Assembly (NCBI RefSeq): GCF_024298765.1
Contig: NZ_CP101210.1
Length of the DNA stretch: 64,000 bases
Source of the DNA: Escherichia coli
Lineage (GTDB): Bacteria > Pseudomonadota > Gammaproteobacteria > Enterobacterales > Enterobacteriaceae
Reading direction: 5' to 3' (one strand)
In this document: positions 26,501 to 29,500 of the stretch, one piece after another
How the letters are laid out: every line of letters starts with the position of its first letter
How positions within the stretch are numbered: the first letter of the stretch is position 1
Program-made: the position numbers

Positions 26501-29500
26501 TTGCAGCAGTGTACTCTTTCGTACAGCCAGAATGTGGCTGACTGAGGTTGAGCAGATAACGTCCGTATGCCCGTTGACCACTTCCGGACGGGAGAGTGTG
26601 ATTGCAGACATAATCGATATTCCTTTTCGCAGATAAACGAAAACGCCAGCCCTGTTCAGGCTGGCGTCAGGGTAATGAAGCGTGGTGAGTGATATTCACC
26701 GGTTCTGGTGCAGAAGCTGCAGATGACGCAGGGTACGGACATCCTCTCTGGCCTGTTCGATACAGGGCAACAGTGCTGCCGAATCCGTTCTATCCTCATC
26801 GTTGTCAAAGATAATTCCCGATTCGCAGTCGATATTGTCCTGTAGCCACGCAATCAGAATATCCAGTGCGGTTTCCGTGGTTAATGATTTCATGTTGTTC
26901 CTGGTTACCAGTCGAAAGTGGGCAGGTCCGGCAGACATTCAGCGCTGGCATCCAGATGAATGAGACTGACGCCATAACGTTGGATGAGTGTGACAACCAG
27001 ACGACGGAACGTTTTTGACAGCCCCAGGCGCTTGAGCCGCAGAACCGGATATGACCACGCATCGGTACGTAACAGATATCCGCTACCTGTGAAATGAATC
27101 CATTCTGATTCACCGAAGTCACTGGTCTGGTGTGACAGCGAGTACAGCCAGGCGTTATCCTTTTCCGTGATATGTGCGGTACTGCAGCGTATGCCGGCAA
27201 GGGTTGCAAACGGTGGTAGTGTGCAGGTTGACTGTTGGTCGGATTCCTCCACCACGCGGAGTGAATAACCGTTTTCAGCGACTTTGTTAATCAGTTCAGC
27301 GAGCTCAATACTATCGACGTCAACGACAATGCGCCCCATGTTCAGCGCCTGCGCATTAATGCTGTCGGCTTCCAGCGTCAGGGCCAGTTGCATCGTTTCG
27401 CCCCCGGATGTTTACCCAGGGTAATGTTATTTACCGTTCTGTAGTTGTCGCGTGTCATCAGGCCGGTTGCCCGGCGTGCCCGGAGGATATCAATACTGTT
27501 TATTAACTGAGAACGGGTACAGGCGCTGAATCCCGGCTGGTCGGTACGTACCAGTGCGTATTTTTCAACGAGAAAGTTCACCGCATCGCACAGTGAAATG
27601 CCTGCCTCAATATGCTGCTCAATCACACGTTCATCAGCGAACGGTGTGTCATTCAGCGTAAGGCCGTAATGCTGGTCCAGCAGTCGGGTGAGCAGTGTCT
27701 GCCAGATTTCAACCGGAGACGGGCGTGAACTGGCCGCCTGCCCGGGTAATACAGGTAATGTTTTCATACTGAAGATTTTCCTGATATGCAGAGATGAAAA
27801 ATGGAAAAGTGGCGTGGTGAAAGCACCAGGCCGGAGCAGAAGGTTATTCTGGAGAGTTACTTTTTCGTTTCGGGCGTCGGATAAACAGCCATATAAACGT
27901 AGCCACAACTGCCGAGGGTGTCGGCTTCGCAGGTCAGCCCTTTTGCATACAGCGTGACGGTATGCTGATGGCGGGAATTCAGTTCACCGCTGGTGAGCAT
28001 GAGTTCCAGTTGTTTCATCAGCAGCGGAAAGGCCTGGTCCAGGTGGTACGAATCCGCGTCGCTGAACCGGCCTCTGATACCGGCGCGGTCGGCAAGGTAA
28101 TGCAACCGGTTGCCCTCCTGCACCAGACGGGCGCCGAAACAGGGCGTCACGGTGCAGGGTAGTCCCCACCAGGGACGGTCATGATTGTCATCGGGATGCG
28201 TTGTCCCGGAGAGTGTGTCTGACACGATAAAATCCTCACAGAAAATCGGTGAATGATAGTTTAACGATGACGAGTCAGCCGGCGCGCAGACCGGCTTCGG
28301 TGAAGGTGTATTCGTTGATGAGTAGGGCCTCATCCACAGCGGCGTCTGAGGTCAGCCAGTCGTACTCGTTTTCCAGTTGACGGTACAACCAGAAGGCCAG
28401 GTCGCGCAGGGCTTCACTGACTGCGGCTTCCGCATCGGCTGTCATAGCCTGACCAGTCGGACTGTTCCTGGTAACTGTGATATCCATGCTGTACGGATGG
28501 CAGTAACGTCCCCGGTGACTGATTTCAGCCTGTAATTGCCAGAAGTTACGTTTCTGCACCGCCTGCAGGGCATCCGCGATACGATGGAGTTCATGCTCCT
28601 GTGGGGCATACTTCCGGATTCTTCTGACTGTCGCTGGCTGCCAGTGCCAGCGTCCTTCAAAACAGGCTCCGTCCCCCTGGCTGCAGAATCCGCTGAACCA
28701 GATGCTCGGCTCTTCCATAAACCTGCCGTTGCTGAGCCGGAAAACGCGCTGGCGGAGGTCAATTCCGAAAATGCCACAGACCTCCCTGAAGTCTTCATAC
28801 ACGTTTTCATACCAGTTGCTGTCAGCATGATGCTGACGGTACCCGTCGCGGGCTTTTTCCTGTGCCGGGCAGGAAAGCTCATCCAGCGTATACACGGTGG
28901 TGGTGATAATTCTGCTCATCAGAATGCCCTGATTCAGTTCAGTGTGACGCTCATCAGCCGGACATACGGGCCAAAACTGTCCTTACGACGTTCAGCAAAC
29001 ACGGCCAGCACACCGGGAATATCCTGCACTTCACGACCGGTATACGCTTCAGTGCTGCCGTGCCAGCGGTACTTACCGGTACAGAACGGAAAAAGACGGG
29101 ATGCAGGATGCTGACGGTGAATACGCATGGCTTCACCACGGGTGATGATTTTCATAATGGGATACCTCTGAAGACAGAAGATAAAAGTGAAAACAGGTGT
29201 GATGTGGTTGTGGCGGTGACGGGTTAAAGCAGGCCGTGTTCCGCAAAGGAGAAAACCTGGCTGCCACCGACTATCAGATGGTCCGGCACCCGGATATCCA
29301 CCAGGCCCAGTGCCTGTACCAGACGTTCCGTGATAAGCCGGTCAGCCTTACTGGGGGTGACTTCACCGGACGGGTGGTTGTGTGCCAGCACCACGGCAGC
29401 GGCATTGTGGTACAGGGCACGTTTAATCACTTCCCGGGGATGGACTTCCGTGCGGTTGATGGTGCCGGTGAAGAGGGTTTCACCGGCAATCAGCTGATTC

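Follow-up and report, generated by a model that had tools for sequence, protein, structure and literature searches.

The Escherichia coli contig NZ_CP101210.1 was analyzed over a stretch of 64,000 nucleotides (nt), referred to as the window, and coordinates refer to this window unless a locus is named. It carried a CP4-type gene block in which a gene encoding 214 amino acids (aa) was located between the DUF987/yeeT-like gene and the type IV toxin-antitoxin (TA) genes cbeA and cbtA. Read along the minus strand, the order was Ag43, DUF932, KlcA/ArdB-type, RadC-like, DUF987/yeeT, the 214-aa gene, cbeA, cbtA, DUF5983, a small open reading frame (ORF) and DUF4942. The small ORF between DUF5983 and DUF4942 was DUF957 according to the RefSeq annotation of an identical island. 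The features were as follows:

28275..28919, minus strand: the 214-aa gene, an ORF with an ATG start, identical to the RefSeq coding sequence WP_059252084.1 and belonging to PHROG 5162
28934..29155, minus strand: DUF987/yeeT-like gene (Pfam PF06174, E=5.9e-40), directly upstream of the 214-aa gene with a 14-nt gap
27857..28225, minus strand: cbeA/yeeU type IV antitoxin gene (Pfam PF06154, E=8e-55) with a GTG start, 49 nt downstream of the 214-aa gene
27378..27767, minus strand: cbtA/yeeV toxin gene (Pfam PF06755, E=4.7e-59)
29224..29700, minus strand: RadC-like JAB gene of the yeeS/yfjY family (Pfam match), with 40% identity to the RadC of a Tabrizicola plasmid
29715..30200, minus strand: antirestriction gene of the KlcA/ArdB type (Pfam PF03230, E=1e-35)
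30291..31109, minus strand: DUF932 gene (Pfam PF06067, E=4e-51), the first of the putative operon
26905..27393, minus strand: DUF5983 (yeeW-like) gene (Pfam match), downstream of cbtA
25763..26611, minus strand: DUF4942 gene (Pfam PF13708, E=8e-69), at the end of the block
31437-34358: Ag43 gene, which precedes DUF932 when the minus strand is read
31152..31175, minus strand: terminator-like hairpin upstream of DUF932 (consensus match only), probably bounding the operon on its upstream side
26642..26668, minus strand: terminator-like hairpin (consensus match only), the first on the coding strand past the block

An earlier note on this DNA had described an intact ORF with short spacing between yeeT and the antitoxin gene. 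The ORF and its translation were confirmed, and the gaps measured 14 and 49 nt. On the coding strand from ~31150 to 26670, consensus matching found neither a sigma-70-like promoter nor a terminator-like hairpin. The short gaps, the absence of such internal sites and the hairpins flanking the block fit a single operon, in which the 214-aa gene is probably co-transcribed with its neighbors. The co-expression with the TA pair that the note had suggested was therefore plausible. An Rfam scan of 25–35 kb gave no match in or beside the 214-aa gene; the only RNA family detected was IS102 (RF00124, 70 bits; 34302-34538, minus strand), upstream of Ag43 at a position annotated in K-12 as the small RNA IsrC. 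The cbeA frame was open upstream of its GTG start (27857-28333, minus strand), overlapping the 214-aa gene at its 3′ end. The fusion proteins of 342–343 aa in public databases, which combine the 214-aa protein with CbeA, are probably explained by this open frame. Since each of them is a single-member entry, they are likely to be frameshifts or sequencing errors.

The 214-aa gene had been considered an extra gene inserted into a canonical block in which yeeT directly precedes the antitoxin gene. That canonical order was found in CP4-44 of strain K-12, where yeeT is followed by cbeA after a 73-nt spacer. However, the spacer proved to be a deletion scar. It reads GGGAATTCTG ATG AGC AGA ATT ATC GCC ACT ACC GG..., which is the upstream region of the 214-aa gene followed by the beginning of its coding sequence from the ATG on (M-S-R-I-I-A-T-T). 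The stump in K-12 keeps the ribosome-binding region and the first 25 nt, joined to sequence past the stop codon of the gene. Codons 1–8 are conserved across the whole family (MSRII.TT; in Alphaproteobacteria, e.g., MSKIIETTVY), which means that the stump is a derivative of the gene and that the gene did not arise from the stump. The other end of the gene was missing from a second allele:

28250..28894, no strand: deletion in K-12 CP4-44, located by local alignment
28372..28933, no strand: second deletion, in the Shiga toxin-producing E. coli strain E2855 and O157-type genomes, leaving the last 97 nt of the gene

The islands of strains Nissle 1917 and E2855 occupied the same tRNA-Ser/ghrA site; the gene was intact in the former, and only its 3′ 97 nt were left in the latter. 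O157-type genomes contained the same 3′ remnant as E2855. The alignments indicated that the K-12-type and E2855-type alleles were two independent deletions of an ancestral gene, and the K-12 scar together with the 3′-remnant allele makes the gene ancestral to the block. A recent insertion into the yeeT-cbeA-cbtA block would agree with the lack of the gene in K-12 and with the tight DUF987-antitoxin junctions of CP4-6 and CP4-57 in the same strain, which showed no remnant of it. However, this explanation was very improbable and was refuted by the two scars: the K-12 spacer holds the gene's own start codon and family-conserved codons, and E2855 holds its 3′ end. Moreover, the pairing of RadC with the 214-aa gene predates the Enterobacteria, because it is also present on alphaproteobacterial plasmids.

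The frequency of the gene was determined among 5,426 complete E. coli genomes. Some part of it was present in 2,682 genomes (3,911 places), and 1,942 genomes (36%) possessed a near-full-length copy, which left ~740 genomes with partial copies only. The K-12-type scar junction was detected in 3,528 genomes, and cbeA-cbtA in 4,932 genomes (13,732 places). The 214-aa gene was thus best described as a common, ancestral and dispensable member of one lineage of CP4-type blocks. The earlier note had allowed that the gene might be an annotated, standard member of all such islands, in which case the gene order that the note took as canonical would be incomplete. This was largely the case, as the gene is annotated in RefSeq and near-full-length in more than a third of the complete genomes; the part that did not hold is its presence in every island, as some islands lack it.

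The partial copies, at least two independent deletions, and the frameshifted and fused variants in databases raised the question of a functionless passenger, which would be carried by the block in E. coli islands and be on its way to being lost. The intact copies argued against this. Pairwise ratios of nonsynonymous to synonymous substitutions (dN/dS) were 0.13–0.20 among the intact copies of E. coli (window and Nissle 1917), Klebsiella, Salmonella and the Tabrizicola plasmid, with 0.20 for the intact E. coli copies, which indicated purifying selection. The ORF is far beyond what a chance ORF would be and has the marks of a real gene under selection. In addition, the copy in the window retained every near-invariant residue of the family, and near-full-length copies were kept in the 1,942 genomes mentioned above. 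A passenger role was accordingly judged to be quite improbable.

The family of the 214-aa protein was large. A word-indexed database clustered at 90% identity contained 2,536 homologs, and an exhaustive profile search retrieved 6,370 clusters at 50% identity, of which 1,122 were below 1e-30. The members were nearly all full-length, at 200–225 aa. The hidden Markov model of PHROG 5162 matched residues 2–210 (profile positions 2–195 of 201; E=5.7e-36). Scans of the protein against Pfam, NCBIfam and PADLOC gave no meaningful match, nor did a Pfam scan of 123 diverse family members. The Pfam and NCBIfam copies used here contained no DUF8835 model. The DUF8835 label was found in one RefSeq record, WP_000094915.1, which is the Nissle 1917 ortholog with 94% nucleotide identity, and a DUF number for the family exists in a newer Pfam release. 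The product name of this ortholog was misspelt in RefSeq as 'DUF8835 domain-containing pootine' (NZ_CM189242.1, locus L103, 3501-4145). Both PHROG 5162 and DUF8835 are catalogue entries with no function assigned, and they add no mechanism. Longer family members (P0143, P0259, and others) offered no informative additional domain. The E. coli protein shared 59–63% identity with the homologs in Salmonella, Klebsiella and Citrobacter, and 57–63% with the alphaproteobacterial ones. This equal distance could reflect either separate acquisitions or saturation under strong constraint.

AlphaFold2 modeled the protein from a 123-sequence alignment as a single alpha/beta domain with a predicted local distance difference test score (pLDDT) of 96.5 and a predicted template modeling score (pTM) of 0.89. 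No fold match to the model was found among solved structures, and sequence searches of the PDB with the single protein and with the profile returned zero matches. Literature searches found no study of the gene or its family. In E. coli, the gene itself is an ordinary one that RefSeq has annotated; the potentially new aspect is the function of its very large family, whose fold is unmatched. Two conserved sites were located in the window:

28653..28691, minus strand: the best-conserved motif, GFxSQGDGAxFxG (codons 77–89), located at a beta-hairpin turn in the model
28497..28499, minus strand: the codon of His141, 90% conserved, in the loop of a second beta-hairpin in the model

Among the 123 diverse members, Q81, G82, D83, and G84 were each kept at 91–98%. 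Further near-invariant residues were E14, L15, A19, A23, G52, L111, I114, L118, H141, W177, Y179, L182, N202, F206, and G210. His141, together with E14, Q81, D83, and N202, is a candidate ligand-binding or catalytic residue. The cysteine motif to which the earlier note had drawn attention was not a family feature: C79 was not conserved, with Trp as the commonest residue at this position, and C86 occurred in only 63% of the members. The family was acidic, with a median isoelectric point (pI) of 4.74 and a median net charge of −16; the copy in the window was milder (pI 5.39, charge −8).

The genomic context was surveyed with one genome per species, which gave 470 loci. The best 80 of these comprised 79 alphaproteobacterial loci and one from Salmonella, and in them the conserved neighbors were all co-oriented with the 214-aa gene:

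57/80 loci: Strawberry-notch (Sno) helicase
56/80 loci: ParB-like protein of ~700 aa
48/80 loci: Toprim
41/80 loci: ArdC
38/80 loci: RadC-like gene, directly upstream of the two-gene cassette described below
36/80 loci: YAcAr
33/80 loci: DUF2958

In Rhodobacterales plasmids, the upstream run was SSB, DUF932, RadC, RadC, DUF6878 and DUF6915, and a TA module of the MbcA/RES or AbiE type was found downstream. When the Tabrizicola plasmid was compared with the E. coli island by tblastn, the 214-aa gene was the best conserved (58% identity), followed by RadC (40%), and the rest was undetectable. On a Tistrella contig (L003), the gene was located ~2 kb upstream of the nikA-relaxase genes and co-oriented with them, a layout that resembled a leading region from gene order alone.

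Of the survey loci, 75 extended far enough upstream, and in 67 of these an ORF of ~138 aa (MADYFTHFSCLLDVGT...) was present directly upstream of the 214-aa gene. In 61 of 65 cases, the overlap between its stop and the start of the 214-aa gene was exactly 8 nt (ATGCCTGAG), and GGAGG lay inside the 3′ end of the ~138-aa ORF. In Alphaproteobacteria, the two genes thus look like a conserved, translationally coupled cassette. Examples of the partner ORF (loci L023-L102 and others) were as follows:

L004: 9592-10008
L009: 11589-12008
L010: 4823-5233
L019: 13592-14008

The partner belonged to no Pfam or PHROG family. Its 1,477 homologs were all 'hypothetical', one of them labeled 'VOC domain-containing'. 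Two possible relationships of the partner were considered, namely that DUF987/YeeT is a truncated homolog of it and that it is a remote relative of CbeA. Both were rejected, each at an hhalign probability of 0.2% (the alignments for DUF987/YeeT were shallow). The partner had no counterpart in the window and was undetected in the phage families, so the 214-aa protein appears to work without it elsewhere.

The phages that contained the gene were large and virulent: Asteriusvirus/PBECO4-like and RaK2-like jumbo phages, giant Caulobacter phages, Saclayvirus, Lanavirus and rV5-like phages. In these genomes the gene was found in arrays of small unannotated genes of the early type, often within direct terminal repeats. 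Metagenomic relatives occurred in phage-like contexts similar to those of the large phages. One Acinetobacter phage record gave the label 'RNA polymerase binding protein'; no weight was placed on it, as the neighboring annotations of that record were implausible. In one metagenomic phage-like array (L016, 2236-2520), a DUF5983 (YeeW-like) gene was located a few genes downstream of the family member. Other genes of the CP4-type block may also occur as free-standing accessory genes of phages and mobile elements.

The strict co-orientation with the genes for Sno helicase, Toprim, the ParB-like protein, SSB and RadC allowed an explanation in which the 214-aa protein serves, as an enzyme or a cofactor, to process the DNA of the element itself once it has been transferred (e.g., in complementary-strand synthesis, end protection or recombination), working with these proteins and not targeting host immunity. 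The very high cross-phylum conservation agreed with this, and E14, Q81, D83, H141, and N202 look more like the residues of an active or ligand-binding site than like an inhibitory surface. However, a protein of such acidity is unlikely to bind DNA, and no motif or fold of a nuclease, primase or recombinase was found. The gene was also retained in E. coli islands and in phages that have no helicase or Toprim neighbors, and autonomous replication of CP4-type islands is not known. We consider a role in DNA processing unlikely.

The position of the gene raised another possibility, that the CbtA/CbeA type IV TA module of Enterobacteria has the 214-aa protein as a third component. It shares a putative operon with cbeA-cbtA, with the short gaps described above. 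In E. coli the gene precedes cbeA, and in Klebsiella michiganensis (L006-L008, 9610-10996) and Salmonella diarizonae (L052, 7287-9065) the order was cbeA, the 214-aa gene, cbtA, which places it between the two TA genes and directly upstream of the toxin gene. Copies on Rhodobacterales plasmids precede other TA modules (MbcA/RES and AbiE-like). Furthermore, the antitoxins of K-12 neutralized their toxins only partly in some tests (PMC5371832). The S. diarizonae locus contained two tandem CbeA-like genes, with 30% and 67% identity to the E. coli CbeA, and its DUF987 match was in two pieces.

Against such a role, CbeA and CbtA were missing from 79 of the 80 species-level loci, the sole exception being Salmonella, which also had DUF987, and none was found in the phage contexts examined. 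The link to the TA pair that the earlier note had drawn was therefore weak, and obligate pairing with a CbtA-family toxin was not observed, with CbtA in 1 of the 80 loci. In E. coli, ~13,700 places contained cbeA-cbtA vs. ~3,900 with any part of the gene, and the islands tolerate its deletion. In K-12, upstream genes of the homologous operons, which have no 214-aa gene, failed to neutralize the toxins (PMC5371832). Phd/YefM antitoxins are roughly 80–90 aa long. The 214-aa protein is about twice the size of the CbeA and Phd/YefM antitoxins and forms a single alpha/beta domain. No Phd/YefM or other antitoxin domain was detected by Pfam at E<=1 in the 123 members, and the CbeA_antitoxin domain PF06154 matched neither the query nor any of these members; the true CbeA is encoded by the next gene. 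A linker-fused AlphaFold2 model with CbtA, which was crude and based on only four paired sequences, kept the domain fold and gave no confident docking (pTM 0.60 vs. 0.89 alone). The antitoxin name given to the gene in public databases appears to come from its position only. This is probably explained by the slot before cbtA in Klebsiella and Salmonella, which is the usual slot of the antitoxin. Membership in the TA module was thus regarded as improbable.

Here, we tentatively favor the reading that the 214-aa protein is an autonomous establishment or counter-defense factor of mobile elements, which is produced early after entry. This reading is inferred from context. The protein would be made early after the element enters the cell and would protect or establish the incoming DNA. 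It would act on a host factor, or a small ligand, that is broadly conserved, and it may bind or modify this target through a site built from the near-invariant E14, Q81-G-D-G84, H141, and N202. It would be neither an antitoxin nor an obligate partner of CbtA/CbeA, and its place in the operon would reflect the modular assembly of accessory genes. A broadly conserved target, either a small ligand or a host or immune component, was suggested by the unusual cross-phylum conservation and the near-invariant polar residues E14, Q81, D83, H141, and N202. The co-orientation with ssb, ardC, parB-like, and radC genes in the best 80 loci and on plasmids showed the clustering with establishment genes that this reading expects, and the position relative to the TA genes varied between E. 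coli and Klebsiella/Salmonella. Conjugative elements are enriched in anti-defense, SSB and TA genes in their leading regions, and among the top enriched families there one third are uncharacterized and ~10% have phage annotations (Samuel & Burstein, 2024; PMC11541004). Cleavage of the antitoxin MqsA by LfgB, a RadC-like protease, has been reported (PMC10846083), and this neighboring family indicates that products of the operon can act on host systems.

The family resembled the antirestriction proteins ArdA, ArdB/KlcA, ArdC, and Ocr in being small, acidic and carried by mobile elements. In E. coli the gene is in an operon with a KlcA/ArdB-type gene, and in Alphaproteobacteria it is beside ArdC. 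The family is common to plasmids, integrative and conjugative elements (ICEs) and virulent phages, where it occurs in regions presumed to be the first to enter the cell or to be expressed. However, the 214-aa protein had no sequence or fold similarity to these proteins, and in contrast to DNA mimics its near-invariant polar residues suggested a defined ligand-binding or catalytic site. The likeness to type IV antitoxins lay in the operon with cbeA-cbtA, the position just before the toxin gene in Salmonella and Klebsiella and the public antitoxin name; it differed from CbeA and Phd/YefM in both domain and size, and it had no cognate toxin in 79 of the 80 loci or in phages. The uncharacterized families enriched in leading regions (Samuel & Burstein, 2024; PMC11541004) were similar in their co-orientation with SSB, ArdC, ParB, and TA genes and in their phage homologs, in a comparison made by names only. 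A difference is that the island carrying the E. coli copy is integrative but non-conjugative, and the window contains no relaxase. Family 394 of that study, which shares the name 'antitoxin...stability system', may instead be of the Phd type.

Several points weighed against an establishment or counter-defense function. The frequent deletion in E. coli shows that the gene is dispensable to its resident island. No relaxase was found within 8 kb of the gene in the 80 survey loci, and a leading-region position relative to the origin of transfer (oriT) was suggested only by the contig from Tistrella. PADLOC gave 0 families at E<=1, though it holds defense systems and not anti-defense proteins, and neither Pfam nor the fold revealed similarity to ArdA, ArdB or ArdC (PF07275, PF03230, PF08401). 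The family was mentioned in no paper found by the literature searches. Moreover, guilt by association cannot separate counter-defense from DNA processing or replication.

A more specific proposal, possible but doubtful, is that the family represents a new class of broad-host-range counter-defense protein with an unseen fold, common to jumbo and other large virulent phages, conjugative plasmids, ICEs and CP4-type islands. Such a protein would neutralize an immune component or signaling molecule that is widely conserved, via the invariant QGDG/His/Glu/Asn pocket, and in Alphaproteobacteria would act with a translationally coupled 138-aa partner.

These results correct a K-12-centered view: what had been taken as the 'canonical' yeeT-cbeA junction is the product of a deletion, and a more complete operon with the 214-aa gene is found in about a third of E. 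coli genomes. With 6,370 clusters at 50% identity and a fold that is confidently predicted yet unmatched, the family is among the larger ones with no assigned function. It occurs where counter-defense and establishment genes are being found, near ArdC, KlcA, SSB, and RadC on conjugative elements and, in large phages, within early regions and terminal repeats. The family is a well-defined, cheap and testable candidate for screens of anti-defense or plasmid establishment.

The surroundings of the block included several other elements. A YeeP-like GTPase gene was located at 34654-35565 (minus strand). It was followed by a complete type I restriction-modification system (hsdM, hsdS, hsdR; 35790-41807, plus strand), according to the annotation of the identical island in E. 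coli strain 13P460A. Both directly adjoined the island bearing the antirestriction gene, and an IS5-family element was then found at 41955-42935. In strain 13P460A (L001), the otherwise identical island had an IS21-family insertion (ISEc12) that split DUF5983 and was absent from the window. Next came a second integrase, together with a Drt3a/Drt3b defense system and a P4-like satellite. These features were located at L001 21527-24601 and 27530-38540.

On the plus strand, a SPATE-type serine-protease autotransporter was present in two overlapping ORFs. The first (18431-19927) contained the Peptidase_S6 and ESPR domains, and the second (19830-22562) contained the beta-solenoid and the autotransporter beta-domain. 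The split probably reflects a frameshift that has made the gene a pseudogene. At 9978-12503 (plus strand), a pilus usher of the CS1 type, with CooC_C and TcfC domains, was located together with adjacent ORFs and is probably part of a chaperone-usher fimbrial operon unrelated to the 214-aa gene.

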